Made by a program: the position numbers and the translations under genes. The notes under the pieces were generated by a model. It searched no databases and was not told the DNA's origin. It saw nothing but the letters and a program-made list of their open reading frames with translations. Positions 1,453 through 53,125 of a stretch of DNA of 64,000 bases are shown here, in pieces. The stretch is from an uncultured Spirochaetota bacterium (lineage in GTDB: Bacteria > Spirochaetota > Brevinematia > Brevinematales > JAOACQ01): contig CAWIGG010000004.1 in NCBI GenBank assembly GCA_963835575.1, positions 576,001 to 640,000 on the forward strand. Reading direction: 5' to 3'. Position 1 is the stretch's first letter, and the number at the start of each line of letters is the position of its first letter.

Positions 1453-1600
1453 TCACGCAAAGTCGCAAAGAACACAAAGGACGGGGATAAAGATTTAATA
1501 CTGAAGCTTTTGAACAATTATGGATTTTATAAAAGAATTCTTTTTGTAATATCCGATTGTTCACGCGGATTTTCACGGATTTGGGTGGATTTTGAGGATT
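1453..1600 (+). repeat. Left periodic repeats of cassette 1: a CGCAAAG-type arm (1453-1479) and a CGGAT-type arm (1547-1600)
   Basis: tcacgcaaagtcgcaaagaacacaaag. The 24-mer taatatccgattgttcacgcggat (1547-1570) is identical to 23009-23032. Confidence 0.75.
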
Positions 1601-1763
1601 TAGTTATTATTTAAGATAGTTGGGTCAGTAAAATTATTATTTTAATACAGAGGCGCTGAGAACGGGTAGAATGGTATTTAAGGTGATTTAAAACAGGGCA
1701 AATTAAGGGAAATTTGGTAGTGATTGTAATTTTGTTTGTAATTAGTTTAATGAAAATAAGAAA

Positions 1764-1791
1764 TTGACTTATCAAACCGATATTATATAAT
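1764..1791 (+). promoter_or_regulatory. Sigma70-like promoter; probable leaderless transcript
   Basis: TTGACT-N16-TATAAT ending 6 nt before ATG 1798, with no SD sequence. Confidence 0.55.
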
Positions 1792-1797
1792 AAATGT

Positions 1798-2535
1798 ATG
1801 AAAGATTTAAATATTATTCTTGAAGGTGAAGACATTCGTCTTGAAAAAACAGAACCTAATGATGTTCTTATAATACTATTTAATACAGTAAAACTGATGG
1901 ATTTGATTAAAAATAATTTTGATTACGGTGATTACTATATAACATCTTTGAAAACTGGGTCAATCGCCGCTTCCATATCTTGTCCGCCTGATTATACTGA
2001 AATGCTTTCTTTTATTCAGATGAATATTAAATCGGGATTTGAAAAAATAAAAAATTATCTTGAACCACTTCAAGAAATGAAAAAAATTGCACATAAATAT
2101 AATGCTGTGTTTTCTTTCAAAGAAAACACAAGATCTATTTTATCCATAGACAAAGATTTAGAGTTTTCAAGTATTGATTCTATAATAAATGTGATTCTTT
2201 CTGAATTTGGAATTATTGAGCGAATTGGTGGAGCTGAACCATCCATGGTTTTTAAAAATAGACATTCAGAGAGGTTTTCGATCCCTCTTTCTCAAGAAGA
2301 AGCAGTAAATTACAGTGGTCTTCTTTATAAAGAAGTAAAAGTAAAACTGGCCTGTAAAATGGATTTTACAACTAAAAAAATAATTCAGTGCGGACTTACC
2401 GATTTAACTAAATTAGAAGATAATCAAACCATTGAAAATTTTAATAATATTACTAATTCTATAAAAACAAAAATAAAAGGGATAAAAAATCCCTCCGATT
2501 TTATTCATAATCAGCGCCATGAGGAAGATGAATGA
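1798..2535 (+). CDS. Hypothetical 245-aa protein, putative partner/antitoxin of the PIN gene; C-terminal half is beta-rich, possibly an OB fold
   Basis: AT-rich ORF with ATGA overlap to the PIN gene and an acidic tail (DFIHNQRHEEDE). Confidence 0.6.
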   Translation: MKDLNIILEGEDIRLEKTEPNDVLIILFNTVKLMDLIKNNFDYGDYYITSLKTGSIAASISCPPDYTEMLSFIQMNIKSGFEKIKNYLEPLQEMKKIAHKYNAVFSFKENTRSILSIDKDLEFSSIDSIINVILSEFGIIERIGGAEPSMVFKNRHSERFSIPLSQEEAVNYSGLLYKEVKVKLACKMDFTTKKIIQCGLTDLTKLEDNQTIENFNNITNSIKTKIKGIKNPSDFIHNQRHEEDE

Positions 2536-2999
2536 AAAAATCAGTTATATTTTTAGATACGGATATAATCAGTTATTTTCTCTCTGATGATGAAGGATTG
2601 GATGATGATGCTAAAAAAGCAAAGAAAAATGTTTTTAAAATAATAGAGCATATCATTGAAGAAAAATCCCATAATTTTGCAGTTTCTGCCCTATCATACA
2701 GTGAGTTATCAGTAATTTCAGATATAGAAGAAAGCCTGAATAAAGTTTTTTCTTTTTTTCAGATTGTTGATTATGATTTTCAATGCGCTAATTATTATAC
2801 TAAACTACACAGGCAGTATGATAATAGAAGACTTAAAACTGATAGGATGATTTTAGCAACAGCGGCAAGATATGGAGCCGCTTATTTTATTACCAATAAT
2901 ATAAAAGATTATAGTAATTATGATATCAAACCTACTACAATCCTATCATTAGACCAGGCCATGGAAGTATTTGGATTATCTCAAACCCTTTTTGAATAG
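2532..2999 (+). CDS. PIN-domain (VapC-like) ribonuclease
   Basis: IFLDTD...SYSELS...TDRMILATA...FITNNIKDY acidic catalytic pattern. Confidence 0.85.
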   Translation: MKKSVIFLDTDIISYFLSDDEGLDDDAKKAKKNVFKIIEHIIEEKSHNFAVSALSYSELSVISDIEESLNKVFSFFQIVDYDFQCANYYTKLHRQYDNRRLKTDRMILATAARYGAAYFITNNIKDYSNYDIKPTTILSLDQAMEVFGLSQTLFE

Positions 3000-3200
3000 G
3001 GTTACAAAAATAGTTTACTTTACTACATCGACAAGCTAGATAAAAATAAACGCAAATCATGTCTATGTTTTAATTAATAAGGAAAATAGCTCAAATTAGA
3101 TATTCTTATACACCGGACGTAGCCCCAAAACTCCTTCCACAAACGTTCTATAACATTTTCTACATCAAGAAATAGTTAAAGGCAGCTTCCAATAATGTGA

Positions 3201-3282
3201 AATCCTATTAAATCCGTCTTAATCTGTGCAAATCAGTTCTTCAACAACAGTGCCGTTCGATACATAAATGGCTTTGCGGTCT
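3201..3282 (-). repeat. Right periodic repeats of cassette 1, inverted relative to 1453-1600
   Basis: aatcctatta-aatccgtctt-aatctgtgca-aatcagtt (10-bp period), plus a truncated ctttgcggtct at 3272-3282. Confidence 0.6.
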
Positions 3283-3302
3283 GATTAATTATAAGGCTTT
3301 TG

Positions 3303-4550
3303 TTATCGGTTCAATTCCAAAAACTTTTTAGCATAATTCCGGATAATAGCTTTTGTGCCGGCGTCGGTATCATAAACGCTGTACCAGCCCTGGTTTTCGT
3401 GCGGCGGGTCTCCAATCCACGGATCGCCGGCCTTCCAAATTTTACCGGAAGCCGGGTTTGCCCTTCCTTCGCCTCCCCAGGCCCAAAAGTTTACGCCGCA
3501 AGCCTTTAATCCTTGTACTGCGGCCTTATAGACCTTATCAAATACTGATTCATAAAACTTATCCCTGGTAGTGGTCAGTGAAGATGGGTCCAGGCTGTTG
3601 CCTTCTCTGGCCAACCCAAATTCCTCAAGTACCAAGGGCTTGCCGAGTTCATCGGCCTTCTTGATGTGGTCTTCTATATACGAAAGTCCTTTGTTTAGAC
3701 CGGTAATATAGCTGGCCGGAACGGCGGGATCATACAAACCCCAATTTTGTATCCAAAGATGGGCCGTCATATAGTCAATCGCGGCATAAGAATGGTTCAA
3801 TTTAAAATCCAGCCCGCAGAATCCAGGGTCAAGGGTTTCTCCCTCACAGCCCGTGGCAACAAGGTGGTTTGCATCCAGGTCTTTAATGGCTTTCGATGTT
3901 TCATCAAGCCAATTGTTAAATTCAAGGGTATGCTTTATTCCTCTCGGCTCATTAGCGAGCTGCCAGGACATGATCGCCGGATCATCCTTGTAAAATAAAC
4001 CTGTGTAAGGATTTTTACGATTGATGATGAACCGGATATGGTCCAGAAACCATTGTTTCGCTTGAGCAGATTTATAAAACCTGGAAACATAATGCTGAAA
4101 TTTGTTCCAATCCCTGCTGTCACAGGGATAGGGAATGGTAGTGCCTTCAGCCCAGGCGACATACTGTGCCATGCCTCCCGACCATTCCCAGAAGTTGTTC
4201 AGACACATAACGGCCGTCATTCCCCGCTGGTTCATCTCGGAAAGAAGGTAATCCAAACCATCCAGAACATCGGGATTGTATTTACCCGGCGCCGTCTGCA
4301 ATGAGGGCGCCATACGCCATGGCTCAGTGTCTGGTCCCTCTGATCCGGCCATAATACGAAGGTTCATAACGGCTAAAGATTTTAAATGGTCAAGTTCCCG
4401 GATGAGCCTGGCCCGGTCTCCGCCGGGGCCTTTTGAACCAAGGTTAATGCCGTACCAAAAATTAGTTCCCAGATAATAATAGGATTTACCGTTGCGAACA
4501 AACCGTTCGTTTTCAATCTCTACAAACATTTTTTGATCCATTATGCTCAA
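3303..4550 (-). CDS. GH5 beta-mannanase/mannosidase
   Basis: WQLANEPR acid/base motif, LVLEEFG nucleophile, NFWAWGG and GDPPHE motifs. Confidence 0.9.
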   Translation of the reverse strand: MSIMDQKMFVEIENERFVRNGKSYYYLGTNFWYGINLGSKGPGGDRARLIRELDHLKSLAVMNLRIMAGSEGPDTEPWRMAPSLQTAPGKYNPDVLDGLDYLLSEMNQRGMTAVMCLNNFWEWSGGMAQYVAWAEGTTIPYPCDSRDWNKFQHYVSRFYKSAQAKQWFLDHIRFIINRKNPYTGLFYKDDPAIMSWQLANEPRGIKHTLEFNNWLDETSKAIKDLDANHLVATGCEGETLDPGFCGLDFKLNHSYAAIDYMTAHLWIQNWGLYDPAVPASYITGLNKGLSYIEDHIKKADELGKPLVLEEFGLAREGNSLDPSSLTTTRDKFYESVFDKVYKAAVQGLKACGVNFWAWGGEGRANPASGKIWKAGDPWIGDPPHENQGWYSVYDTDAGTKAIIRNYAKKFLELNR

Positions 4551-4571
4551 GGTTTACTCCCCTTCCGCGGC

Positions 4572-5858: not shown

Positions 5859-5904
5859 ATCTTATCTCCTGTTTTAAGTTTGTCGAAATATAACGATTAA
5901 ATCT

Positions 5905-6078
5905 TCCGCGAAGTCACGCTAATACACACTAATAATCCCTGTTTTTTTAAATTTATTTCCAATTTATTAATCTTTAGTGGAAATCAACTAAATTTAAATG
6001 AATATATTAATTCAACCCGGAGAATCGCAAATAAAATCCTTTTTCCCTATTTCGCGTATATTCGCGTGAATTAGCGGA
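5905..6078. repeat. Empty pair of 10-bp-periodic inverted repeats (5905-5933 / 6049-6078)
   Basis: tccgcgaagtcacgctaatacacactaat versus the reverse complement tccgctaattcacgcgaatatacgcgaaat, around an AT-rich spacer. Confidence 0.7.
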
Positions 6079-6102
6079 TTATCTGTTCCCAGTATTTTGC
6101 CC

Positions 6103-6906: not shown

Positions 6907-6916
6907 TAAAATAAAC

Positions 6917-20562: not shown

Positions 20563-20590
20563 TTAGCCACAGTCACAGAAGGACACAGAG
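20563..20590 (+). repeat. Periodic repeat, left arm (CCACAG type); inverted partner at 28991-29020
   Basis: ttagccacagtcacagaaggacacagag versus the partner's reverse complement ttaaccacagagttcactgaaggcacggag. Confidence 0.65.
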
Positions 20591-20656
20591 TTTATATTTA
20601 TAAATCAATGCCTTAAAGAATGATTAAAAACTCAAATAATGCTACTTGATTGTACT

Positions 20657-20705
20657 GATCCGATTCTGCACGCGGATGACGCGGATTATTCGGATTCGCG
20701 CGGAT
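20657..20705 (+). repeat. Left terminal inverted repeat L1 (CGGAT, 9-10-bp period)
   Basis: 40/49 identity to the reverse complement of 29088-29136. Confidence 0.85.
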
Positions 20706-20706
20706 C

Positions 20707-20856
20707 GGCTGATTGCTTCCGTTATCATAAAGTCAGCGCATCAGATTTTTTTTAAAAATAACGGTCTTGACAGTAAAACATTAATTTTTAAAATGATTGT
20801 AATAAATTTCGTATATTTTATAAAAAACGAAATGTTTTTTTTTGGAGTTAGCTGCC
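20707..20856 (+). promoter_or_regulatory. Recurring promoter module, copy 1
   Basis: TTGACA(20767)-N16-TAAAAT; colinear with 23060-23175 and with the reverse complement of 53800-53905. Confidence 0.7.
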
Positions 20857-20959
20857 AAACCCATTTTTATATCTTAAATCATTAATAAACGATTCTTGAT
20901 TTCTCCTCAGTTATATTATAGAATTAACTAAAATTATTAAAGGATTTTTCGTACCTGAA

Positions 20960-22355
20960 GAGTTTTTGTCAAATGTTGTGTATGACATACCCTCTCATTT
21001 TTTTATGCTGCCTTTTTTACAAGCTCTCCGTTCTCAAAAACAGCGCCTTCCAATACAAGGCTAATCTTTTCATAACCTCTTAATTTTCTCCATCGCCTGG
21101 ATGCCTTATCCAGTAATTTATAGACCATTATTAGAATCGTTTCCCTGGTTCCGCAGCCTCTCATCTTTTTAGTTCTTAATCGAACTGTAGAGAAGGTAGA
21201 TTCTATTACGTTTGTCGTACGGATATGTACCCAATGTTCCGCCGGACAGTTATAAAATTCGATCATAAGCTCCCAATCCTTTTCTAAACATTCGACAGCT
21301 GCTGGATATTTAGGATTAAAAACCGCCTGGAATAATTCAAAAGCTTTGATAGCATTATCCTTATCAGGAGCATTGCATATCTCATGAAGCATCTCTTTTG
21401 CCTTTGACTGTAATACTTTGGGCAGCTTGTTTAGAATGTTCTTTATCTTATGAACCCAGCATCTCTGCCATCTGGATTCAGGATATACTTCTTTGGCTGC
21501 TTTCCAGAATCCAAGGCTTCCGTCTCCGATAAAAAGAATAGGACCTTTCAAACCTTTTTCTTTTAGGTTTCTTAATATCCCTAACCAAGTCTCGGAATTC
21601 TCTCTGTAACCTTCTTCAACAAGAATAATCTCCTTTTCACCATTCTCATTGGCTCCGATCATTACAAGAGTGCATAAACGGTCTTCGCTGCCCTGTACAT
21701 TGAAGTAAATGCCGTCAACCCATATATAGCAATACTTTTTATCGCTTAAATCGGATGTCCGCCACTCATCATATTCTTTACCCCATCCTTGTTTCATTCT
21801 GCTTATACTTGAGGCTGATAATCCTTTCGCTTCTTCACCAAGCAATCCTCTCAAGGCATTCTCCATATCCATCTCTGAGACTCCATAGAGATACAACAAT
21901 GGAATGGCTTCCTCAATTCTCAGGCTTTTTCTCATATACGGCGGTACTATTAGGCTTTGAAAATTGTCGCCTCCGAGTCGGTTCCTTGTTCTCGGAATAC
22001 ATACATCAATAGCCCCTCCACCAATGAGAATCTGACGGGCTTTATGATACCCATTTCTTACTATTGCCTTTCTCCCGTCTTCGATAGTTAAATGCTCTCT
22101 CTCCTGAAGAAACCCATTAATTTCATCTTCCAGAGCCTTCTTGATTATTTCCCTGGCCCCGATCCTTGCCAATTCTTCAAGACATAAAAATTCTACTGTT
22201 TCATCTTGATTAAAAGCCTGTAAGAGCTTAAAATCTTCGTTGTGCTTCGGCATATGGCGTATTCCTCCTTTTGTTTATTGTCGTAAATAAATTATAGAGG
22301 GTACGCCATCTTTTTTATAATATTTATTCCTATACACAACTTTCTATTATAACTC
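20960..22355 (-). mobile_element. IS256-family element, 1396 bp, copy 1
   Basis: Imperfect IRs beginning GAGTT; 8-bp TSD TACCTGAA at 20952-20959 and 22356-22363. Confidence 0.95.
21003..22253 (-). CDS. IS256-family (mutator-type) transposase
   Basis: RNGY, YIWVDGIY, IGDG, WQRCWVH and RTTNVIES motifs; protein identical to 24923..26173. Confidence 0.96.
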   Translation of the reverse strand: MPKHNEDFKLLQAFNQDETVEFLCLEELARIGAREIIKKALEDEINGFLQEREHLTIEDGRKAIVRNGYHKARQILIGGGAIDVCIPRTRNRLGGDNFQSLIVPPYMRKSLRIEEAIPLLYLYGVSEMDMENALRGLLGEEAKGLSASSISRMKQGWGKEYDEWRTSDLSDKKYCYIWVDGIYFNVQGSEDRLCTLVMIGANENGEKEIILVEEGYRENSETWLGILRNLKEKGLKGPILFIGDGSLGFWKAAKEVYPESRWQRCWVHKIKNILNKLPKVLQSKAKEMLHEICNAPDKDNAIKAFELFQAVFNPKYPAAVECLEKDWELMIEFYNCPAEHWVHIRTTNVIESTFSTVRLRTKKMRGCGTRETILIMVYKLLDKASRRWRKLRGYEKISLVLEGAVFENGELVKKAA

Positions 22356-22830: not shown

Positions 22831-23008
22831 ATCTGCGTTTAAACAATTTTTCTAATTGGTTCCGGGCACGGCATCTTATACGACGTTTGACGCTGTGCTC
22901 CCCGGCCTTCGCAAAGCCGCGGCCTGCGGCGCTCGTGTTCGCCCTGCCGCGGGTAGGCAGGAAATTATTATATTCACAAGCCTTTTTAACTAAAACATAA
23001 GCATGTTC

Positions 23009-23175
23009 TAATATCCGATTGTTCACGCGGATCAGCACGGATAGGACGGATTTGCGCAGAGCAGCCTGATTGTTTCCAGCATTATAAAGTCAACACATCA
23101 GATTTTTAAAAAAATACCGGTCTTGACAGTAAAGTATTGCTTTATTAAGATGAATGAAATAAATTTCATATATAA
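23009..23175 (+). promoter_or_regulatory. Left repeat L2 (23009-23057) plus promoter module copy 2
   Basis: CGGAT periodic repeat followed by TTGACA(23123)-N17-TAAGAT; GAGGAG RBS before ATG 23202. Confidence 0.75.
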
Positions 23176-24820
23176 AGAGTTGAATAAAGAGGAGATTAAT
23201 TATGAATAAGACAAATCAGGCTGTTATTAAAATAGATCTGTGTGGTTCTAAAAAATATTACGAAAAAAACAAATATTCCGAACCAAATATTACTCAAATA
23301 ACTTTAGATAAACTTTTATCCGTTGTTAAAGAAATATTTCCATATTCAAATTTAGATTTTCCAAAAGGTAGTTTATATGCAAGGCAAGGTGATTGTGTTT
23401 ATATAATTTTAGATAAAGCCACAATTGCATTACGATCATCAATAGAGTTTATGAAAAAATGGTTTAGTATTTTACCAAGTTTACCAGATTGTAGAGCAAT
23501 AATTGATTATGGTGAAATATCAATTGATGATAGTAGACCTAGAATTGAACTTATTTCAGAATGTTTTGAGAACATTAGTGTAATAGAAAAATCTTACGGC
23601 GCTGGAGAAATTGGTGTCACGGAGGCATTAAAAAATAATTCCGATAATACATTAGTCCAATTTATTAAAAAAAAGAAAATTGATATAACAGAAGGTAGAT
23701 TTGTTAATGTTTTTCAAGCCAATTATGAAGACCCTCGATTATTTCAAGATAGTAGTTTAATTCATTCATTATTCGTGGCTTCATCGGACACAAGTAATGC
23801 AAGAGAAATGGCTATTGAAGCCCTAATTCTCGAATGTTTAATTGAAAGAATCAACAAACCGATTTCATTAATAGATTTAAATTACTGGTTAAAATATAAA
23901 AATTGCCCTCAAATTGATCAATTATTAATAGATGGTATTATACAAAAATCAAAGTACATATCGAAAGATAAGGAAAATAACATTGTTTTTAAAAGTTCAG
24001 ATACAATTAAGGAGTTAAATGTTATTAAAGAAGATTTTGAAGCACAACGTGATGATACTATTAAAAAAATAGCTTTATATTTAAGCGATGGTTTGGGTTT
24101 GGACACCTCGATAGTGAATAAAGAATTAAACTTGACTGATCTTGTTGAGAAATATTTATGCGCTGTATTTTTAGAAATTCGTTTTATGGCAAATTACTTC
24201 AAATCCACACAACTATTGTTTGAAAAATTATCTTCTGATGAAGATTTTGATTATATAATAAAATCGCATTTATCAAATAGTAATTCCATAGGTATAGAGC
24301 AATTTGCATTATTAAAGAAATTATTTCTTGATGCATTGACAAATGTAGCAACAAAAAACAATAAATATATTGCATCAATATTCCATAATATACTTATGAT
24401 ATATTATTTAAACCGCAGTGAAAAATATATCCACTCTCAATTAGAAATAATGAAACAAAAGGAAATTTATATTGATACAAATGTTCTTTATTCAATAAAA
24501 TGTAAATATAGTCAATATCATGATATGCTGACATATATAATTGATAATTTAAACAGACTTGGAGCTCAGATATTTGTTTTTGAAAAAAGTGTGGCTGAAT
24601 ATAATGATTCATTAACTACAACTTTTAAAAAATATAAAAATGATACACTCAATTTTTTACATCAAGAGAAAAAACCTTGGATATGGTATGAATATGAAAA
24701 TAATATTAATTCATACCAAAATAGTTTTGAATATTGCATTTCTTTGCATCATATACCAATAAATACAAATAATTCAATTGATGATAGTTTCGAAGAAGCC
24801 AGAAAAGAATTATCTCAAAG

Positions 24821-26216
24821 GAGTTATAATAGAAAGTTGTGTATAGGAATAAATATTATAAAAAAGATGGCGTACCCTCTATAATTTATTTACGACAATA
24901 AACAAAAGGAGGAATACGCCATATGCCGAAGCACAACGAAGATTTTAAGCTCTTACAGGCTTTTAATCAAGATGAAACAGTAGAATTTTTATGTCTTGAA
25001 GAATTGGCAAGGATCGGGGCCAGGGAAATAATCAAGAAGGCTCTGGAAGATGAAATTAATGGGTTTCTTCAGGAGAGAGAGCATTTAACTATCGAAGACG
25101 GGAGAAAGGCAATAGTAAGAAATGGGTATCATAAAGCCCGTCAGATTCTCATTGGTGGAGGGGCTATTGATGTATGTATTCCGAGAACAAGGAACCGACT
25201 CGGAGGCGACAATTTTCAAAGCCTAATAGTACCGCCGTATATGAGAAAAAGCCTGAGAATTGAGGAAGCCATTCCATTGTTGTATCTCTATGGAGTCTCA
25301 GAGATGGATATGGAGAATGCCTTGAGAGGATTGCTTGGTGAAGAAGCGAAAGGATTATCAGCCTCAAGTATAAGCAGAATGAAACAAGGATGGGGTAAAG
25401 AATATGATGAGTGGCGGACATCCGATTTAAGCGATAAAAAGTATTGCTATATATGGGTTGACGGCATTTACTTCAATGTACAGGGCAGCGAAGACCGTTT
25501 ATGCACTCTTGTAATGATCGGAGCCAATGAGAATGGTGAAAAGGAGATTATTCTTGTTGAAGAAGGTTACAGAGAGAATTCCGAGACTTGGTTAGGGATA
25601 TTAAGAAACCTAAAAGAAAAAGGTTTGAAAGGTCCTATTCTTTTTATCGGAGACGGAAGCCTTGGATTCTGGAAAGCAGCCAAAGAAGTATATCCTGAAT
25701 CCAGATGGCAGAGATGCTGGGTTCATAAGATAAAGAACATTCTAAACAAGCTGCCCAAAGTATTACAGTCAAAGGCAAAAGAGATGCTTCATGAGATATG
25801 CAATGCTCCTGATAAGGATAATGCTATCAAAGCTTTTGAATTATTCCAGGCGGTTTTTAATCCTAAATATCCAGCAGCTGTCGAATGTTTAGAAAAGGAT
25901 TGGGAGCTTATGATCGAATTTTATAACTGTCCGGCGGAACATTGGGTACATATCCGTACGACAAACGTAATAGAATCTACCTTCTCTACAGTTCGATTAA
26001 GAACTAAAAAGATGAGAGGCTGCGGAACCAGGGAAACGATTCTAATAATGGTCTATAAATTACTGGATAAGGCATCCAGGCGATGGAGAAAATTAAGAGG
26101 TTATGAAAAGATTAGCCTTGTATTGGAAGGCGCTGTTTTTGAGAACGGAGAGCTTGTAAAAAAGGCAGCATAAAAAAATGAGAGGGTATGTCATACACAA
26201 CATTTGACAAAAACTC
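24821..26216 (+). mobile_element. IS256-family element, 1396 bp, copy 2
   Basis: 9-bp TSD ATCTCAAAG at 24812-24820 and 26217-26225; inverted copy of 20960-22355. Confidence 0.95.
24923..26173 (+). CDS. IS256-family transposase
   Basis: Same protein as 21003..22253. Confidence 0.96.
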   Translation: MPKHNEDFKLLQAFNQDETVEFLCLEELARIGAREIIKKALEDEINGFLQEREHLTIEDGRKAIVRNGYHKARQILIGGGAIDVCIPRTRNRLGGDNFQSLIVPPYMRKSLRIEEAIPLLYLYGVSEMDMENALRGLLGEEAKGLSASSISRMKQGWGKEYDEWRTSDLSDKKYCYIWVDGIYFNVQGSEDRLCTLVMIGANENGEKEIILVEEGYRENSETWLGILRNLKEKGLKGPILFIGDGSLGFWKAAKEVYPESRWQRCWVHKIKNILNKLPKVLQSKAKEMLHEICNAPDKDNAIKAFELFQAVFNPKYPAAVECLEKDWELMIEFYNCPAEHWVHIRTTNVIESTFSTVRLRTKKMRGCGTRETILIMVYKLLDKASRRWRKLRGYEKISLVLEGAVFENGELVKKAA

Positions 26217-27015
26217 ATCTCAAAGTAAAATACATTTAGTAAAATTAGAACCTTATTTAGATGAAAATTCCTTAAAGAATGTATTCAACTTAGTTTATAA
26301 TGCTAAGAAAGATTATAAATCTGAATTTGACCTCTATGGTGTTCCATATGATTCGGAATTTTATAAAATGAAGGTTTTACATGACTCAAATTGTTTATAT
26401 AAATTGAAATCAAAAGCGTCAAACCCCTTTGAAGCCAAACAATTATTTGTCACATGTGATTATCATTTAACTAAGGTCCGAAAAATTGAAAGAAATGAAT
26501 ATGAATTTTTAGTAGCAATAACTGAATTCTACGAATTTATATTACCTTATTTATTTCTATCAGATTCTGTAACTGCAAATCCAATCGAGATGCCTAATTT
26601 TTTATTAGCATCTGCACTTTCTATTGATCTATCAAATATTTTAGATTTAGACTCAATGATTGGTAGATATTTAATTCACGATAAAAATATTAACCAAAGA
26701 CATGAAATAATATCGAAATTAAAAGAAACAGAAAGATTTAATTCAATAAAGAAAAAACATGAAACTTTATTTAAACAAAAAAATGATGTAATTACAAAAG
26801 AAGAAATTAGTGATTTCATTTTTGAAGTTAATAATTTATCAAAAGATTATAAACAAGAAGTAAAAAATCAACTTGTAAAAAACATTACACAAAAAACAAT
26901 TTTTGATAAAGATAGTCAGATTTCTCAGCTAAAAGAAGTAAATGAAGCTTTACTTCTTGAACTTGAAAAATATAAGAAAAAAGAAAAAGGTACTAATTAT
27001 TACTTTAAGATGATG

Positions 27016-28868: not shown

Positions 28869-29160
28869 AAATCCCGAACAATCCTGTTAATCCTGCAAAA
28901 TTGGGGTCAGTACAATAGTTTCAATCAAATAAAAAAGGACATTTGTATTAAAATATTTTGTCTATCGGTCGTAGCCTATATCTTCACCTCCTCCGTGCCT
29001 TCAGTGAACTCTGTGGTTAATTTAAAACGTATATCAGATATAACCCAGTCACGAATTGAACTAAAAAGCAGTTCGGCATAAAATAAAATCCGTGCAAATC
29101 CGCCTCATCCGTGTTATCCGTGTGCTGAATCGGATCGATACCATAGCTTCAATCAAAAAA
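28869..29160 (-). repeat. Cluster of three right-arm periodic repeats (28869-28929, 28991-29020, 29088-29160)
   Basis: Tandem aatcc units. The first and third arms share the tail GG-TC--TAC-ATAG-TTCAATCAAA. Confidence 0.8.
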
Positions 29161-45085: not shown

Positions 45086-45110
45086 GCTTTTTTATAATAC
45101 CCCAATAAAA

Positions 45111-45147
45111 CGCTGATTTACACGGATGAGGCGGATTTACGCGGATT
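45111..45147 (+). repeat. Solo CGGAT-periodic repeat arm
   Basis: cacggatgaggcggattt is identical to the reverse complement of 29096-29113. Confidence 0.7.
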
Positions 45148-45718: not shown

Positions 45719-46552
45719 GTGCGCCCGGCAGGGCGCACGTTCTTGCGGGTGAAAGTCCCGTATGCACCCGGTAAGGGGAAGCATTAGCCGGACGGCAAGG
45801 GTGTCCGCCGTGAGGCGGAATCTGAAGGAAGCTGCAGGCAAAGCACTGGTCTGACGAACAGAAACCGCATAGAGGCGGCACTGCTGGGTGAGACGGCAAT
45901 TATCGTTAAAGCCCGATACTTACACAGAAAGCAATGACGTAGATGCGGCAGACATAAGTGTGAAGGAACGAGCGCATTACCCGGGGAGGTCTGACAGCCT
46001 GCCACATATTGGCTATTGTCATCGAAAGGTGATAAGAGGGGTTTTCAGAAGTCAGCAGAAGCCATAGTAACCTCTTGACCGGAGGCGAAGGGCAGAACCA
46101 AACTATAGGAGTACCGCTATGAATCCTGACACGGTAACTTACGCAGAAGCGGAAGGAAACTTTCCGGCTTTGACAAAGGATAGGGACGGAATTCCGAAGA
46201 ATAGCCAAAGCGCGTGTATCCGTGCAGAGAGTCAAAGAAGGAGTACACCGGATGAAACAAATTTAATAGAGCGTCTGGTCAAACGCGAGAACATGCTGGA
46301 AGCTTATCACAGGGTGGTAAGCAATAAGGGGGTGGCGGGAGTTGACGGAGTCACTGTAAAACAGCTAAAAGGCTTCATCAACAAACATATGAACATCGCC
46401 TTTCCTAAGAAATTATTCGACAGTATGGGACTCGTATCGATGCTGAACAAGATTTGTATTTATCAGAAATTATATTTTGGAACCGCCGTATACGGAACCG
46501 TACGTACGGTGGTGTGAGAGGTCGGCGGGTGTAAACCCGCCTCCTACTCAAT
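45719..46552 (+). mobile_element. Class C (IIC) group II intron with internally deleted ORF, 834 nt
   Basis: 5' GTGCGCCCGGCA...GGTGAAAGTCC. Short D5 GAACCGCCGTATACGGAACCGTACGTACGGTGGTG, D6 hairpin and 3' ACTCAAT. It starts 6 nt after a terminator. Confidence 0.92.
46119..46517 (+). pseudogene. Remnant of intron RT/maturase
   Basis: RT0 (ENMLEAYHRVVSNKGVAGVDG) joined to a maturase-type tail (HMNIAFPKKLFDSMGLVSM); no YADD motif. Confidence 0.85.
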
Positions 46553-47077: not shown

Positions 47078-47087
47078 ATAATTCTCC

Positions 47088-47468
47088 TTATTTTTTGCTT
47101 AATTTACAGCAGAGGACATAAACAAGCCCGCCGATTACCGGCACAATAAACACTGTACCTGATAGAAATAACAGACGGTCGGCAAACCCTTCGTTTCCGA
47201 TGTCCCTCCAAATGAATGTATGGGTTATTAATGCTGTTACGGCGGCCAGGATTGCCATCAGGAAACCCATCATCAGGGAAAAAACCAGCGGTTTTTCCGG
47301 TTTTCTAAAAAACACATAGATGATCGCCCCTATCTGGATGATGAGGGGAGTTAATACATACCGTGCGTTTAAAGGCACGCCGGTCCATTTCAAGATGAAC
47401 AGTATGAGAAAGCAGATCAGGAAAACCGGTATTAACAGAAGCCATGTCCTTTTATTCAACATACCCAT
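47088..47468 (-). CDS. Four-TM membrane protein of unknown function inside the leuC-leuD operon
   Basis: Hydrophobic ORF with 10-13-nt gaps to both neighbours. Confidence 0.6.
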   Translation of the reverse strand: MGMLNKRTWLLLIPVFLICFLILFILKWTGVPLNARYVLTPLIIQIGAIIYVFFRKPEKPLVFSLMMGFLMAILAAVTALITHTFIWRDIGNEGFADRLLFLSGTVFIVPVIGGLVYVLCCKLSKK

Positions 47469-47481
47469 ATTGTTTTCCTAA

Positions 47482-48768: not shown

Positions 48769-48843
48769 ATTGTTCCTCCTAAGAATACCTGTCATTAACT
48801 TAATATTATTATTACAATTAAAACATTGCCTGGCGCCTGGGAT

Positions 48844-49098
48844 TTCACCACAGAGATCACGGAGATTGATTTTTTAAATATTTATTTTACTTCTAATAAT
48901 ATTATCCTCAGACTGTGTGAAAAGTAAAAAAACGCTCCCTGAGTGTGTTCTCCCTGCTTTTACGCTTGTATCGAAGGGAGCATAATATAGGGTCCCATTT
49001 GATACAATTTGCCTTCGGCAAATCACACTTCGATAAACTCAGTGCAACGCTCAGGGAACGCTCTTTTCACACAGTCTGCCTGCGTCCTCCGTGGTGAA
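48844..49098. repeat. Three-level nested palindromic element
   Basis: Outer ttcaccacagag / ctccgtggtgaa, middle perfect 16-bp IR (48909-48924 / 49063-49078), inner CCTGAG...TCGAAG units. Confidence 0.75.
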
Positions 49099-49152
49099 TT
49101 AAAGTAACATTCAGGATATTCAGATAAGCTATCCTTAATTAACTAATAGTTA

Positions 49153-49195
49153 ATATACTTAAGTATATATTAAGTTATTTTTATTGTATTGTCAA
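49153..49195 (-). promoter_or_regulatory. leuCD promoter with palindromic operator
   Basis: Minus-strand TTGACA-N17-TAATAT; perfect palindrome ATATACTTAAGTATAT at 49153-49168. Confidence 0.7.
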
Positions 49196-49209
49196 CTTTT
49201 TTTGAAAAA

Positions 49210-50085
49210 TTATTCCCATATACCTTCCGCCACCGGAACAACTTTCCCGCCGACAAATACATCTATTCCTTTCTCATTCCCGCCCGCTTTCAAGTGAAGC
49301 AGCGAGGGTCTGCCTATTTCATATCCCTGTTCGCAGCGTATGTTAATCACATCTTTATTAAAGTATCTGTTTTTCACAAGGTATCCCGCCAGACAGCCGT
49401 TTCCGCTGCCAGTCGCCGGATCTTCAGGAACACCGTAATAATCGACAAATACCCTCACGCTCAATGTGTTCTCACTATTTCGTGTTTCAAGGCAGAACAC
49501 CAGAATTCCCTTGGCTTGTTTATCCCGAACAAAATCAAATAATTTGTCTTTATTTATTCTGCAATTTTTCAAAGCAGTGAGGTTTTTAAGCGGTACAATC
49601 CAGAACGGCAATCCTGTCGATACTTCCTGAATGGGAAACCGTCTATCAAAATTATTATCATCAAGGCCTAAAAACTCAGCTATTTTTTCAACTTCGGCTG
49701 TCGAAAAAAATTCCGGCGTGATCTGTTTCATCCATAAAAGGCCGTCCGGATTAAATTCTACAGGGATCTGCCCGGCTTTTAGATTAAGGACGACTTTTTT
49801 TATCTCTTTTTTTATGATTTCTTTCTGTATAACAAAAGCCGTCCCGAGGGCCGGATGGCCGGCAAAAGGGACTTCGGAGCCGGGAGTGAAAATCCTGACG
49901 TCATAGCCGCCGTTATTTTCCCTGTCCGACAGGATAAAAGCTGTTTCCGAGAAATTGATCTCGCGGGCAATCTTCTGCATTTCCTCATCCGAAAGGCCGC
50001 CGGCGTTTCTGAAAACAGCCAGCTGGTTCCCCTGGTATTTTCCCTCAGCGAAAACATCAATAAAATTATAAATAAGCTTACTCAT
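49210..50085 (-). CDS. PhzF family isomerase
   Basis: GNQLAV, NFSETAF, EVPFAGHP and EDPATGS motifs. Confidence 0.92.
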   Translation of the reverse strand: MSKLIYNFIDVFAEGKYQGNQLAVFRNAGGLSDEEMQKIAREINFSETAFILSDRENNGGYDVRIFTPGSEVPFAGHPALGTAFVIQKEIIKKEIKKVVLNLKAGQIPVEFNPDGLLWMKQITPEFFSTAEVEKIAEFLGLDDNNFDRRFPIQEVSTGLPFWIVPLKNLTALKNCRINKDKLFDFVRDKQAKGILVFCLETRNSENTLSVRVFVDYYGVPEDPATGSGNGCLAGYLVKNRYFNKDVINIRCEQGYEIGRPSLLHLKAGGNEKGIDVFVGGKVVPVAEGIWE

Positions 50086-50133
50086 ATAAACTTCCTTATT
50101 GCGTTAAACTTTTCCTGTATCGATCCTTTCATA

Positions 50134-50496
50134 TCATTTTTTCCTTTTGAAAATTTGATATACCCAGCCTGACAGGAATGGGACTATTATCGAATATGCC
50201 GGAAGGACCAGATATCTCAATAGAAAATCATGACTTATGATAAAATGCATGATGATGACCAATAAAGTAACTGTCAAGCCCAAAGTAAAGGCCAGAAGCC
50301 TGCTTAAGGCAAAGGAATTTTGAGGCTTCACAATAAAAAAGAAAGGAGTTATGATAATGAATAGAATTAAGAATGCCGTAAAAAACCTGAAAAATTCCGG
50401 TACAAATACTCTCTGATAGGTAATCAAAAAATATCCTGCGGCAAACAGGACCGCCAGTATCAGCCATTCATACCATTTCAAGCGTTGAAAAGTCAT
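50134..50496 (-). CDS. Small membrane protein
   Basis: Four hydrophobic segments; AAGGAG RBS before ATG 50496. Confidence 0.6.
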   Translation of the reverse strand: MTFQRLKWYEWLILAVLFAAGYFLITYQRVFVPEFFRFFTAFLILFIIITPFFFIVKPQNSFALSRLLAFTLGLTVTLLVIIMHFIISHDFLLRYLVLPAYSIIVPFLSGWVYQIFKRKK

Positions 50497-50535
50497 ATAT
50501 TTCTCCTTATAGAGACGCAATAAATCGCGTCATTA

Positions 50536-51474
50536 TTAGTGAATATTATCCACAATTTTATTATAAACAAATTCTGTTTTCGGTACAGGAACCGCATACT
50601 TTTTTCCCATTATTATAACTGCTCCTCCGAATAAATCGCCTTCGTTCTTCCTACCGCGCGTTTCCACATCCCTCTGATAGGAAGTCCTTGTCTCAAAAGG
50701 AAAAGACCGGGCTTTTTCCAAAGTTTTTTCAATAATATCCGGGTCCAGTTTAATTCCCTTTTTATCGGCTATTAACTTAATCTCAAGAATGATGCTTTGA
50801 GTCAATAATTTAAGTTCAGGATCATTATAAACCCCGCCGATGGTCTTTCCGGAATATGCCGTCACAAGCCCGTAAGAGGTCACGAAGAGATACTTTTCCC
50901 AGATCGCCGGATAAGGGTCCGTCAGCCATTGATAATGAATACCGGCCTTATCCAATATTTCCTTCACATCCCCGGCCTGATAATTATTATGAAGCGGGTC
51001 CGTCCCGAACAAAATTCTCGCGTCTCCGCCTCTCTGCAATACAACACCGGGCTTTTCGATATGTGTGCCGACATAGACACATGCAGGCAGGATAATTCCT
51101 TTTTTTAAATCTTTCCTGATCCTTTCGACAATGTCCACACCGTTCAAAAGCGGAAGTATCACCGTCTTTTCATCAGCAGTTTTCTTTATTTCCCGGGCCG
51201 CGTTCTCAAGATCGTAGCTTTTAACGCAGAGAAGAACAATGTCCGGCTTCGGAAGCTTTTCAATCGATTCGGCCGCGCTTTCCGGCCGGCATTTAAAAGT
51301 CCCTTCGGAAGAATCCAGAATCAGGCCGTTCTCTTGTATTGCCTTGAGATGTTCCCCCCTGGCTATGAAATAAACATGGGCAGATTGTTCCCTGTCATTC
51401 TGAAAATAATAGGCCAGCTTCCCGCCGAAATAACCGCCGACCCCGCCGGTGCCGAAAACAACTATATTTTTCAT
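50536..51474 (-). CDS. panE: 2-dehydropantoate 2-reductase
   Basis: GTGGVGG, VKSYD, LNGV, WEK and TSYQRD motifs. Confidence 0.88.
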   Translation of the reverse strand: MKNIVVFGTGGVGGYFGGKLAYYFQNDREQSAHVYFIARGEHLKAIQENGLILDSSEGTFKCRPESAAESIEKLPKPDIVLLCVKSYDLENAAREIKKTADEKTVILPLLNGVDIVERIRKDLKKGIILPACVYVGTHIEKPGVVLQRGGDARILFGTDPLHNNYQAGDVKEILDKAGIHYQWLTDPYPAIWEKYLFVTSYGLVTAYSGKTIGGVYNDPELKLLTQSIILEIKLIADKKGIKLDPDIIEKTLEKARSFPFETRTSYQRDVETRGRKNEGDLFGGAVIIMGKKYAVPVPKTEFVYNKIVDNIH

Positions 51475-51484
51475 GTACTTCCCT

Positions 51485-52174
51485 CTATTTTACAGCGTAA
51501 AAACCGGCCTGCATAACGGAATACCAGAATAGCTCAACCGTCCTGAAACCCGTATCATTGAGTAAATCCAGATGCTCTCTTACCGTAATGGGAAAATATT
51601 CCCTGTCAAACCGGACCATATGCGCTTCAACAGCGGAAACCGGCCTGCCTTTTTCAAGCTGGAAATTTTTCCACCGCTTCATTCCCAGATCAATCGAAGG
51701 GGATGATGAAGGCCGGATATTCTCAAAAGTGATAAATAATCCTTTTTCCTTTAACATAGAATAGCAGTTTTTCACCGCTCTTTTTCTTCCTTCCCGGTCA
51801 AAATAATGATGAGCCTGTACGGCCGTTATCACATCCGGCTTCTCTTTTTCCTTCCATTCAAGACTCTCCGAACCTGAAAGGGGCAGAAAATGAATCCTCT
51901 TATATCTCCTTTTGTCAATTTTCTCTTTCGCTTTTTCCAGCATGGCCGCCGAAGGGTCTGAAAGATAAAATTCGGTGCTGTGAAATTGGCCATAAGCCTG
52001 CATTATTAATGTGCCGGTGCCGCAGCCAGTATCCAGCCAAATTTCAGGTGATGGACAATATGCCTTGACTAATTCAATAGTTTCAGTATGAATTGCGTCA
52101 TAATACGGGATTGTTTTTCTGATCTGTTCATCATATTCGGATGATACATGCGCCGTCGAATTATCCTTATCCAT
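51485..52174 (-). CDS. Class I SAM-dependent methyltransferase (CmoA-like)
   Basis: IRKTIPYY and LDTGCGTG motifs. Confidence 0.85.
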   Translation of the reverse strand: MDKDNSTAHVSSEYDEQIRKTIPYYDAIHTETIELVKAYCPSPEIWLDTGCGTGTLIMQAYGQFHSTEFYLSDPSAAMLEKAKEKIDKRRYKRIHFLPLSGSESLEWKEKEKPDVITAVQAHHYFDREGRKRAVKNCYSMLKEKGLFITFENIRPSSSPSIDLGMKRWKNFQLEKGRPVSAVEAHMVRFDREYFPITVREHLDLLNDTGFRTVELFWYSVMQAGFYAVK

Positions 52175-52177
52175 ACC

Positions 52178-52987
52178 TTACTCCTTAACCGCGGTCAGAT
52201 AAATCCTGTTGAAAATCAATTCCACATATCCGTCCGGTCCCGCCTGCTTTTGAAACTCTTCCCGGACAATATTTTTAAAATTCTCTTTATATTCCGGTGT
52301 TAAAGCGCAGGTATAATATTCCTGGTTTAAATAGCCCGCTATCGCTCCCGATGCAAATATGGTATAAACATCGCCGGGAGTACGATACGATATATCTTCA
52401 TGGATTCTGGAATATTTTACTTTAAATCCGGCTTCCCTGAAGAGCCTGGAATAATCTTCCGCATCCTGCCGCATAAAGAAAGGGTTTGTCCAGCAGTAAA
52501 AGATTTCCTTTGTCTGAGGATCCGTTTTTATACGTTCAATCGCGTTCAAAAAATTCATGCAGTATTTTTTTCCGCCGGGTGCCTGAATTCCAGCTATCCC
52601 GTTTTTCCTGAGGGCCTGATAAAAATTCCGGACGCTTTTTAAAGGGTCCTTAAACCATTGAAAAGTGGAATTGCAGAAAATCACATCGAATTCATTCTTG
52701 AAATTAATGTCATCCGCTTCCATCCGGTAAAATTCAATCTCAGTATTATCATACTTTTTCTTCGCTTCACTGATCATTCCCTCCGACGGATCGATCCCGG
52801 CAACCCTGCCTTCAGTTAATTCCGATATCTTCTTTGTCAGATTCCCGGGCCCGCAGCCGGCATCCAGGACGTCATGATGCTTTTGAATGTTTAATAAAGA
52901 AAACAATGTGTCAGCCGCTCCTTTCTGGACAATGGATGTGTTTTCATATTTTGGCGAAATTGTTGTAAAATTGATATTTTCAGACAT
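52178..52987 (-). CDS. Class I SAM-dependent methyltransferase (Tam/BioC-like)
   Basis: LDAGCGPG and FDVIFCNSTFQW motifs. Confidence 0.85.
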   Translation of the reverse strand: MSENINFTTISPKYENTSIVQKGAADTLFSLLNIQKHHDVLDAGCGPGNLTKKISELTEGRVAGIDPSEGMISEAKKKYDNTEIEFYRMEADDINFKNEFDVIFCNSTFQWFKDPLKSVRNFYQALRKNGIAGIQAPGGKKYCMNFLNAIERIKTDPQTKEIFYCWTNPFFMRQDAEDYSRLFREAGFKVKYSRIHEDISYRTPGDVYTIFASGAIAGYLNQEYYTCALTPEYKENFKNIVREEFQKQAGPDGYVELIFNRIYLTAVKE

Positions 52988-53038
52988 AATGAACCTCGTT
53001 TATAAAAAATCGGTTTGGGCGGTCTAAAAAAACTAAAT

Positions 53039-53125
53039 TCTCACGCTAAGCCGCAAAGCACGCAAAGTATATAATAATATATTCCAAACAATTTACCTTT
53101 GCGGTCTTTGCGTCTCTGCGTGAGA
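53039..53125. repeat. Empty pair of 9-bp-periodic CGCAAAG inverted repeats
   Basis: tctcacgctaagccgcaaagcacgcaaag / ctttgcggtctttgcgtctctgcgtgaga with a 29-bp spacer. Confidence 0.8.

Follow-up and report, generated by a model that had tools for sequence, protein, structure and literature searches.

Word arrays in the window

The window, by which we mean the whole stretch of 64,000 nucleotides that was analysed, contains between its protein-coding ORFs a series of short arms, each built from repeated words and occurring alone, in pairs or in co-oriented modules next to genes such as thiD and thiC, hicA, a PIN gene and a cupin-HTH gene. The features are the following:

1456-1488, plus strand: solo arm with the words CGCAAAG, CGCAAAG and CACAAAG (spacing 8 and 9), a word type that flanks PF13366 genes in relatives (loci L039, L051 and L053).
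1539-1601 (words 1564-1599), plus strand: GGAT-class arm, leader AATATCCGATTGTTCAC followed by four units, a solo module.
3199-3238 (words 3199-3236), minus strand: degenerate GGAT-class arm that points to the PIN gene and is regarded as a separate solo copy.
5900-6085 (arms 5907-5933 and 6050-6076), minus strand: gene-less hairpin pair in the thiD-thiC spacer, words CGCGAAG/CGCTAAT/CGCGAAT, 116-bp loop.
20563-20591 (words 20567-20590), plus strand: solo CACAG-word arm (CACAGAG/CACGGAG).
20647-20708 (words 20671-20705), plus strand: GGAT-class arm with leader, then an 84-bp tail common to the copy at 23026.
23005-23051 (words 23026-23051), plus strand: GGAT-class arm, overlooked in the initial annotation.
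28871-28920 (words 28871-28896), minus strand: GGAT-class (CAGGAT) arm with leader CCCCAATT, likewise overlooked.
28991-29015, minus strand: CACAGAG/CACGGAG-word arm in a co-oriented minus-strand module.
29088-29140 (words 29088-29122), minus strand: GGAT-class arm with leader.
45095-45147 (words 45121-45146), plus strand: solo arm of the GGAT class, within a convergent spacer and ahead of the hicA 3' end.
48840-49100, no strand assigned: CACAGAG/CACGGAG pair with forward arm 48844-48868 and a reverse arm split by a MITE (48900-48908 and 49079-49098); the word type flanks a PF13366 gene in the relative G002 (locus L049).
48909-49078, no strand assigned: MITE of 170 bp with terminal inverted repeat CAGACTGTGTGAAAAG, bordered by a CCT duplication; it derives from an IS of 1695 bp that carries an IS1182-like transposase.
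53039-53125 (arms 53044-53067 and 53097-53120), no strand assigned: gene-less hairpin pair, CGCAAAG words, 29-bp loop, between the cupin-HTH and methyltransferase genes; absent from the same spacer in the relative G006.

Every arm of the initial annotation was located where it had been placed, including the solo arm set at 45111 near hicA. The two empty pairs (5905/6078 and 53039/53125) form long bulged hairpins with folding z values of -7.8 and -5.1, and reading of the pair stems examined revealed no T-run after them. A search of the whole window at Rfam gathering scores gave nothing at the arms and no rRNA, a group II intron remnant at 45804-46552 being the sole match. RNAalifold applied to 19 solo GGAT modules returned 0 pairs and no conserved RNA fold, and a structured-RNA reading of these copies was rejected on this result.

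A genome-wide family of arrays

The arms belong to a family of 641 arrays in the 4.39-Mb genome, each made of three or four seven-base words at 8-10 bp spacing. Arrays of degenerate words number 530 genome-wide against 37 after shuffling, and chains of exact 5-mers (at least three repeats, 7-11 bp apart) number 630 against 70 when the sequence is shuffled inside 200-bp blocks. The pattern CRCRRAD taken three times has 158 matches in this genome and its reversal has 0. Together with the orientation counts given below, these numbers bear out the initial view of a single window-wide family of non-random, periodic, inward-facing arrays. The spacing is fixed for each word class, at 9 bp for AGAT, 10 bp for GAAT, AGAA and TAAG, 9-10 bp for GGAT and 8-9 bp for AAAG. 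In the window the density is ordinary (14 arrays in 64 kb, against a genome mean of 9.4), and two of these 14 lie inside ORFs and are probably noise. The organism itself was found in one public DNA run, as short low-depth contigs, and in none of the RNA runs listed.

By our own rough ORF calls, on which all gene positions and the division into ORF and intergenic sequence are based, the 15% of the genome outside ORFs holds 496 of the 641 arrays. Their density amounts to 1.33 per kb between convergent genes, 0.74 in tandem and 0.35 in divergent spacers, and the last fifth of the spacer ahead of a start codon is avoided. Approximately 100 pairs face inward across 10-250 bp without a gene; the remaining arrays are solo or co-oriented, the solo ones lying in the sense of the upstream gene in 98 cases and opposite to it in 53. 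Between the two arms the words are 87% complementary and the spacers 45%, as expected if the words, and not a continuous helix, are selected; phased protein binding along the arms, a reasonable proposal, would fit with this complementarity.

Orientation of arms and content of pairs

Neighbouring arrays separated by 0-250 bp face inward in 98 cases and outward in 10, those separated by 250-500 bp in 15 and 3. At larger gaps the inward-facing cases are 7 against 9 outward (500-1000 bp), 22 against 43 (1-3 kb) and 26 against 56 (3-10 kb), and neighbours sharing the same word at 1-3 kb are divided into 21, 16, 15 and 20 among the four orientations. Because the inward excess is confined to 500 bp or less, the short empty pairs 5905/6078 and 53039/53125 are real units, as had been proposed, whereas the supposedly filled pairs 1547/3238, 20657/29136 and 20563/29020 are best taken as independent copies that face each other by chance. 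The four arms near 20.6 and 29.1 kb follow the order A B ... A' B' and are not nested, and inside 20657/29136, for which the absence of a recombinase had been stated, lie two copies of IS256 and one transposase gene of the IS1182-like type. The fourth filled pair, 48844/49098, is actually an empty one with the 170-bp IS-derived MITE inserted in one arm; this MITE is also the only feature of the window that combines terminal repeats shared with an IS and a target-site duplication.

The enclosed genes had been described as toxin-like, which applies to the PIN gene (2532-2999) and to the hicA gene neighbouring a solo arm and to nothing else; PADLOC gave no match among the seven window proteins tried, the pair of 245-aa and PIN proteins included. 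Among the 53 window ORFs scanned, DDE transposases were found and no tyrosine or serine recombinase domain. Genome-wide, the interiors of arm pairs consist of PF13366 genes, PF13366 remnants or sequence without an ORF, the nuclease gene and its remnants being the only enriched content, and the orientation counts give no genome-wide sign of arms enclosing kilobase-scale cargo.

Comparison with orthologous loci confirms that at least one pair is an insertion lacking in relatives: the thiD-thiC spacer measures 245 bp with the pair here and 12-50 bp without arrays in five of five relatives, which are about 70% identical and too diverged for a target-site duplication to be read at this place. The region 1400-4560 comprises arms, the 245-aa gene, the PIN gene and a GH5-like gene; the two genes that border it stand side by side in four of four same-genus relatives. 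From the cupin-HTH gene to aconitase there are five genes here with an arm pair at each junction, and the two abut in G001-G004.

PF13366 cassettes and their nuclease

The genome contains nine PF13366 (PDDEXK_3, 'GxxExxY') genes, none of them in the window. A complete cassette is 350-450 bp long and consists of a leader with three words at 8-10 bp, a nuclease gene of about 120 codons and the same words inverted. By reading, word arrays are present on both sides of all nine genes; the strict array catalogue contains an upstream array for nine of nine and a downstream array for five. In relatives, about 17-18 of 20 PF13366 loci have inverted arrays on both sides. A scan across phyla found at least 600 relatives, and the 80 loci retained come from many bacterial phyla and two archaeal MAGs. 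Among 73 usable loci an array occurs upstream in 29, downstream in 35, and the same word is found inverted on both sides in 17, compared with 0 of 146 shuffled flanks. This sample covers clade B only, because the loci were searched with a six-sequence clade-B profile, the variation among all 18 proteins being too great for a common one.

In 18 of 18 aligned PF13366 proteins the catalytic D...ExK and the motif G..G.LE..Y are invariant. The predicted structure (pLDDT 96) has as nearest folds the PD-(D/E)XK nucleases Cas4, lambda exonuclease and Hjc resolvase, all Foldseek matches being weaker than E 0.001, and no solved structure matches the protein by sequence. A final G is typical of the words that occur with clade A proteins (GPGLLE, INFN), a final T or A of those that occur with clade B (GxGFLE, INFG). 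Covariation between residues and words, which reached its highest z, 4.6, at the position just ahead of the invariant Q, was not used as evidence, since 28 of the 38 labelled loci share one word and kinship is uncontrolled. The family is listed with the function 'Unknown' in the PD-(D/E)XK enzyme survey (PMC3424549), and the literature searched on GxxExxY, PDDEXK_3/PF13366 and the TIGR04256, TIGR02436 and IVS-protein families contained nothing on arms or mobility. The sole gene of the IVS-protein family PF05635 in this genome has short-period arrays on its flanks (AGCTAAN, period 7).

Each of the word types CGCGAA/CGCTAA, CGCAAAG, CACAGAG/CACGGAG and CGGAT flanks some PF13366 gene. The words and the left/right asymmetry of the 5905/6078 pair match the cassettes C4:157450, C6:78869 and C6:112747 of this genome; in the same-genus G002, PF13366 genes are bordered by CGCAAAG arms at L039 and by CACAGAG/CACGGAG arms at L049; CGGAT-word arms are found at a PF13366 gene in other phyla, on both sides in L132 and on one side in L138, L128, L110 and L089. 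The window arms share with the cassettes the build of at least three seven-base words at 8-10 bp, and 5905/6078, 48844/49098 and 53039/53125 share the inward inversion, which the solo GGAT arms do not have. The gene between the arms is lacking from all window copies, the nine genes being elsewhere. A decay series is indicated by two of 14 gene-less pairs with interiors of 250-450 bp, which keep parts of a PF13366 gene, in one case in two frames.

The arrays and the PF13366 gene also co-occur across genomes. Among 31 related genomes, all 11 with a PF13366 gene have 6-158 arrays. Of the 20 without the gene, 14 have no array and three have one, the remaining three having 9, 14 and 25 (one of these genomes is 73% complete); as the genomes are kin, these counts are not independent. 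The lineages f4, f6 and g4 contain neither arrays nor the gene.

Interpretation

We consider it rather probable that the window arms are gene-less copies of the word arrays of PF13366 cassettes, likely non-autonomous or decayed and predicted to depend on nucleases encoded elsewhere. The cassette itself is probably a selfish element and not a system for capturing cargo genes. The initial proposal of a non-autonomous system is in line with this, since the window arms carry no enzyme of their own; as to its trans-acting recombinase, a candidate enzyme encoded elsewhere does co-occur with the arrays, but it belongs to the PD-(D/E)XK nucleases (PF13366) and to none of the known recombinase families. 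The nuclease would recognise the words, probably through several molecules sitting in phase on a single arm, or alternatively on the bulged hairpin or cruciform into which a pair of arms can fold. It would then cut at the arms and start copying or transposition, whether or not the element bears the gene, in the way that RAYT transposases are thought to act on REPINs. Loss of the gene would leave empty pairs, and subsequent loss of one arm solo arms. Mobilisation of the arrays by the nuclease is what we infer from these associations.

Several features fit this cassette model less well. A resident gene exists for the words of 331 of the 641 arrays, about half; the largest class, GGAT, with 120 arrays and seven window arms (half of those in the window), has none in this genome. 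Only 12 of the 120 GGAT arrays are in close pairs, and many stand in the same orientation within modules some 200 bp long, which the model does not predict, so the GGAT-word arms are partly unexplained by it. The three genomes with 9, 14 and 25 arrays and no PF13366 match count against the model too. The sense bias of the solo arrays also speaks against it and hints at a role at the level of the transcript.

With more doubt than confidence, we further suggest that this small nuclease (about 120 residues), together with its inverted arrays of tandem seven-base words, could constitute a class of mobile elements not described before. Every lineage of the nuclease would read a word of its own, gene-less hairpins and solo arms would arise from the cassette by the hundreds per genome, as a REPIN-like population, and orphan word families such as GGAT, with its 120 copies, would persist as fossils or be moved by a related nuclease.

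Alternative explanations

In the model first put forward, the arms are phased sites at which a trans-acting recombinase captures and exchanges cargo, much as in an integron. The regions bounded by arms are indeed accessory, as seen at 1400-4560 and between the cupin-HTH and aconitase genes, but accessory regions tolerate any insertion, the inward-facing excess stops at 500 bp, the 8.4-kb 'pair' is not nested and contains three transposase genes, the interior of 48844/49098 is a MITE, and the 53 window ORFs scanned gave no tyrosine or serine recombinase domain. The core sites of attC have the form RYYYAAC...GTTRRRY, and none was read at the outer ends of the pairs. We therefore regard this model as very improbable. 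Just as improbable is the movement of the arrays as REPINs by the two RAYT-like Y1 transposases of the genome, or as MITEs by a DDE transposase. The two IS200-like Y1 genes (C2:500548-501097 and C2:456246-456894) each have arrays 100-250 bp upstream, but what borders them directly is another hairpin, GTAGAGACG...CGTCTCTAC, whose 9-mer occurs 53 times, on both strands; the RAYT reading was rejected since it is these hairpins that the genes carry. As to DDE transposition, a few CACGAAG pairs are contained in MITEs that have an IS1182-like terminal repeat at their ends, yet such a repeat is present on both sides of only two of 98 close pairs and on one side of four more, and this reading was rejected as well.

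It could also be argued that the arrays are primarily structures tolerated or used by the host, namely bulged 3' stem-loops with a part in RNA stability, processing or termination, comparable to REP sequences or to the stems that RNase III cuts in intervening sequences of 23S rRNA, and that the nuclease genes are guests inserted in the hairpins and not the driver. Such a role would account for the highest density between convergent genes, the avoidance of the last fifth before start codons and the preference of solo arrays for the sense orientation. It would also fit with the success of the GGAT class without a resident gene, with the three genomes that have arrays and no gene, and with the insertion within arms of the IS1182-like IS and its MITE, a further mobile element; in the Coxiella intervening sequence an ORF lies between terminal inverted repeats and is excised by RNase III (PMC4990558). 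On the other hand, a passive landing site offers no explanation for the word type following the clade of the enclosed protein across phyla; the arms surround the gene tightly, and whole lineages of relatives do without both arrays and gene. Moreover, the insertion of the thiD-thiC pair is recent, the spacer concerned working in five of five relatives without such a pair, and neither a T-run after the stems read nor a conserved fold in the 19 solo GGAT modules was found. On balance, we judge a primarily structural role unlikely.

Comparison with known systems

One of the systems closest in organisation to the preferred one, gene-less copies of a nuclease cassette, is REPIN/RAYT (Bertels and Rainey 2011; PMC3116915, PMC3337134). 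Both have inverted repeats with a short spacer in gene-less, hairpin-capable units of many intergenic copies (98 pairs within 250 bp here), the same repeats flanking a small enzyme gene of few copies, and gene-less units thought to be moved in trans. A REPIN is built on a single REP palindrome, there is one RAYT per REPIN family, and the RAYT is a Y1 HUH transposase (PF01797), whereas the arms here contain three or four tandem words with non-pairing spacers, of many types, and flank nine genes for a PD-(D/E)XK nuclease of about 120 residues. The inverted doublet with short spacer is thus shared, and the repeats here do not flank a PF01797 gene. The 23S rRNA intervening sequence of Coxiella burnetii (PMC4990558) resembles the cassette by a small ORF between long-stem terminal inverted repeats and by being regarded as selfish; it differs in that the elements here lie between protein-coding genes, and not in a 23S rRNA helix (the window contains no rRNA), encode a different ORF family and have stems bulged at every word.

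MITEs of DDE transposons are likewise short, intergenic, non-autonomous derivatives that share their ends with a gene-bearing form and may be nested (C2:77500-77960), but the complete form here is without a DDE transposase and its ends are tandem word arrays. Integron attC cassettes have in common with the arrays imperfect inverted repeats bounding small promoter-poor genes, and empty and filled states; an integron has one attC per varied cassette, whereas here two arms enclose one gene family, attC core sites and varied cargo between sites are lacking, and in the window no array lies beside an integrase (53 ORFs) and there is no excess of cargo. Tandem seven-base intergenic words of several sequence types per genome resemble the STRR repeats of cyanobacteria. 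These are said to have been described by Mazel and co-workers in 1990 as contiguous heptamers without spacers, and they are not known to occur in inverted pairs enclosing a nuclease gene; by that account, the arrays here differ in being spaced, inverted and placed around such a gene.

Significance

For annotation, the cassette model accounts for about 640 otherwise puzzling repeats in one genome, with the caution that solo copies facing each other are not to be taken for cargo-bearing units. The arrays provide a specific candidate DNA partner for the widespread PF13366 family. If it is true that the nuclease moves them, they would represent a second kind of enzyme-plus-hairpin replicator beside REPIN/RAYT, with an enzyme of different fold and with modular words, and this modularity could ease the reading of target recognition and perhaps its re-programming.

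Arrays in the window and in the genome

All of the arms listed in the initial annotation were confirmed by reading the window sequence. Each consists of 3–4 words of seven bases of the form C-R-S-N-R-A-D with 1–3 variable bases between them and a short leader in front (for example TTCAC, GGAAC, GTAATC or ATATCCGATTGTTCAC). The period depends on the word class, being 9 for AGAT, 10 for GAAT, AGAA, TAAG and TAAT, 9–10 for GGAT and 8–9 for AAAG and AGAG. In the assembly under study (4.39 Mb, 7 contigs; the window is C4:576001–640000), an exact 5-mer chained at least 3 times at 7–11 bp occurs 630 times (70 after shuffling of 200-bp blocks), and degenerate-word arrays number 530 (37 in the shuffled control); the array pattern gives 158 matches versus 0 when read backwards. 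Degenerate-word arrays and GGAT chains were merged into a catalogue of 641 arrays, 496 of which lie outside ORFs (greedy calls made for the analysis), in 15% of the DNA. Twelve convincing arrays fall in the window, and 2 further ones, inside ORFs, are probable chance matches; with these 14 in 64 kb and an average of 9.4 across the genome, the window is representative. Two catalogued arrays had not been listed initially:
23026–23051, array
28871–28896, array

Orientation of neighbouring arrays

Neighbouring arrays were tallied genome-wide by orientation and separating distance.

Table. Orientation of neighbouring arrays (distance: inward-facing; outward-facing)
0–250 bp: 98; 10
250–500 bp: 15; 3
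500–1000 bp: 7; 9
1–3 kb: 22; 43
3–10 kb: 26; 56

Counts of all same-word pairs are even across the four orientations at 1–3 kb (21, 16, 15, 20) and at 3–10 kb (38, 29, 38, 36). Arm orientation is thus random at kilobase range, but not at short range, where pairs are real. The array family and the empty pairs 5905/6078 and 53039/53125 therefore stand, with counts beyond shuffling and a short-range inward excess. The pairs 1547/3238, 20657/29136 and 20563/29020 had been regarded as filled units; because kilobase-range orientation is random, they are what chance facing of independent copies would give. With no inward excess at this range, there is no sign of the cargo capture proposed earlier.

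The four arms near 20.6 and 29.1 kb run A B ... A' B' without nesting, and two co-oriented modules on the minus strand (29140–28871) head into the IS. The four arms bracket two copies of IS256 (1428 bp each), a gene for an IS1182-like transposase and an ORF interrupted by one of the IS256 copies:
20928–22355 and 24821–26248, IS256 copies, mutually inverted, 99% identical
23202–24820 and about 26249–27075, halves of the ORF split by the second copy, neither with a family match in Pfam, NCBIfam or PADLOC

The remaining "filled" pair, 48844/49098, began as a normal empty pair whose loop measured about 35 bp. Its reverse arm received a 170-bp MITE (48909–49078; terminal repeat CAGACTGTGTGAAAAG, CCT duplicated), one of 17 copies in the genome, the other 16 being of 93 bp. 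The parent IS (1695 bp, 7 full copies) encodes a 498-aa DDE_Tnp_1_6 + DUF772 transposase (IS1182-like). The IS or its MITEs repeatedly lie within word arms or in the middle of minimal arm pairs and show 3-bp duplications (C2:1749630, C2:1987871, C3:53901, C6:115055, C6:217746, C6:326307 and window 48909–49078), and other MITE copies occupy a different hairpin (…GGTTCGACAG / CAGGCTCACCAACCAAG…); they seem to target hairpin-type repeats.

Arrays flank PF13366 genes

The genome contains nine genes of PF13366 (PDDEXK_3, "GxxExxY"), none of them in the window. By reading, word arrays flank the gene on both sides at all nine loci.

Table. Arm words of the PF13366 cassettes
CACGAAG: C2:137455, C2:747052
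CGCTAA/CGCGAAT/CGCGAAG: C4:157450, C6:78869, C6:112747
CACAGAA: C2:377388
CACAGAT: C5:384649, C6:107908
CAGGAAG/CGCGAAG: C5:453298

The words of 5905/6078 are those of C4:157450, C6:78869 and C6:112747, and its arms show the asymmetry of these three cassettes, one beginning GATAATCCGCTAA and the other TCTTCCGCGAAG. Judged by its sequence, 5905/6078 is a gene-less copy of such a cassette in reverse orientation. In relatives, about 17–18 of 20 PF13366 genes are bracketed likewise, among others by CGCAAAG words (L039 from same-genus G002, L051, L053), CACAGAG/CACGGAG words (L049, also G002) and mixed CACAGAT/CACGGAT words (L056). A cross-phylum sample, restricted to relatives in clade B, comprised 80 loci, and in 73 of them each flank was at least 150 bp long. 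Here a strict array lies upstream in 29/73 and downstream in 35/73, and the same word is inverted on both sides in 17/73, against 0/146 shuffled flanks; CGGAT words also occur, at one locus (L132) on both sides of the gene. As CGCGAA/CGCTAA, CGCAAAG, CACAGAG/CACGGAG and CGGAT words all flank PF13366 genes, every word type of the window has such a gene somewhere.

Because this genome and the 30 relatives compared are kin, co-occurrence is given as plain counts. Each of the 11 genomes that match PF13366 carries arrays (6–158). Among the other 20, arrays are absent from 14, three have one, and the rest have 9, 14 and 25, the last being 73% complete. Three lineages (f4, f6, g4) lack both arrays and gene throughout.

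Signs of mobility and decay

The thiD–thiC junction is 12–50 bp long and array-free in 5/5 relatives; here it spans 245 bp including the pair 5905/6078. The pair 53039/53125 is absent from the cupin-HTH to methyltransferase spacer of another relative, G006. About 95 kb of relatives' DNA near orthologues of window genes holds a single weak array, and the genes bounding window 1400–4560 are neighbours in 4/4 same-genus relatives. Pairs are also nested inside loops of other pairs (C2:77500–77960). Among 14 gene-less pairs with 250–450-bp interiors, two contain PF13366 remnants (C5:37894, two frames, E 1.5e-6 and 3e-4; C2:635771, E 0.0025), which points to a route from cassette through pseudogene to empty pair.

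In window 48796–53142, five genes (PhzF-like, 128-aa unknown, PanE/ApbA, two methyltransferases) separate cupin-HTH from aconitase. These two abut in relatives G001–G004, and G006 has a different four genes between them; the operon interior is variable.

The GGAT class and co-oriented clusters

GGAT is the largest class (120 arrays, including 7 window arms) and has no resident PF13366 gene in this genome. Only 12/120 of its arrays are paired, against 34/51 for AGAA. They often build co-oriented modules, each some 200 bp long, whose moderately conserved tail ends near GGGCTACGCC; a search of these modules for a conserved RNA fold found none. In a further relative, G022, three GGAT arrays follow one another on one strand about 232 bp apart. 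Solo arrays more often lie in sense with the upstream gene (98 vs 53) and array density is highest between convergent genes, so that a role at the transcript level is conceivable, as is mere tolerance of insertions at 3' ends. Co-oriented clusters mixing several word types lie downstream of a gene, their sense strand rich in purines:
window 1539–1640 and 28871–29140
C4:710250–711000 and C4:995550–996150
C5:158450–159100
C2:1083000–1083500
Many of them are followed by the motif GGCTACGCC together with a small hairpin, and GGAT modules recur every ~200 bp. The cassette model leaves these clusters unexplained.

Comparison with known systems

REPIN/RAYT is the closest analogue in manner of working. 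The word arrays are not members of it, because the two RAYT-like Y1 (IS200-like) genes (C2:456246–456894, C2:500548–501097) carry a different hairpin, GTAGAGACG...CGTCTCTAC, on each flank. Its 9-mer occurs 53 times in the genome, both strands counted; a conventional REP/RAYT system thus looks likely to coexist with the arrays. 23S rRNA intervening sequences with an ORF (PMC4990558) share the ORF-between-stem layout, but differ in location and ORF family. The sole PF05635 (23S rRNA IVS-protein family) gene (C6:1994–2589) has long period-7 arrays, AGCTAAC/AGCCAGA upstream and AGCTAAN downstream; arrays of a similar kind (AAAGCTN or GCTAAN) occupy ~30 other sites, pointing to a possible parallel system of gene plus words. 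The arms failed membership tests for integron cassettes and DDE-MITEs; at most 6 of the 98 close pairs could be hitch-hiking within the IS1182-like MITE. Window 45804–46552 has group II intron RNA domains (RF02001, RF01998, RF00029) and a sole ORF of 132 aa with a weak maturase match, and looks like a reduced intron adjoining hicAB.

The nuclease and a proposed mechanism

The function of PF13366 is entered as "Unknown" in a table of PMC3424549, GxxExxY is an annotation label only in the relevant part of PMC8934634, and the papers searched on either name do not describe the arms. The G..G.LE..Y motif, D63, E73-x-K75 and Q87 are invariant in 18 aligned proteins. A sequence search against solved structures gave no match; the folds closest to the confident AlphaFold model (pLDDT 96.3) are those of PD-(D/E)XK nucleases, namely Cas4 SSO0001, lambda exonuclease and the archaeal resolvase Hjc, each with a match weaker than E 0.001. 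Two clades track word type across this genome and the relatives' loci.

Table. PF13366 clades and words
Clade A, GPGLLE...INFN: words ending in G (CACGAAG, CGCAAAG, CACAGAG, CGCAGAG)
Clade B, GxGFLE...INFG: words ending in T or A (CACAGAT, CGCAGAT, CGCGAAT/CGCTAA, CACAGAA)

The arms fold as stems with a bulge at every word. In 81 pairs, the two arms are complementary at 87% in words and 45% in spacers, no more than for unrelated copies (59%); selection thus probably targets the words rather than one uninterrupted helix, which would suit a protein that reads the words either in duplex DNA or in a bulged hairpin or cruciform. A trans-acting recombinase had been suggested initially; the window holds derivatives only and its arms are non-autonomous. 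A trans-acting partner is plausible, the candidate being a nuclease. Beyond the observed anatomy, association, orientation bias, single insertion and decay series, we propose that this nuclease would recognise its own words, several at once and in phase, and that cleavage at the words would set off copying or transposition, both of units with a gene and of those without.
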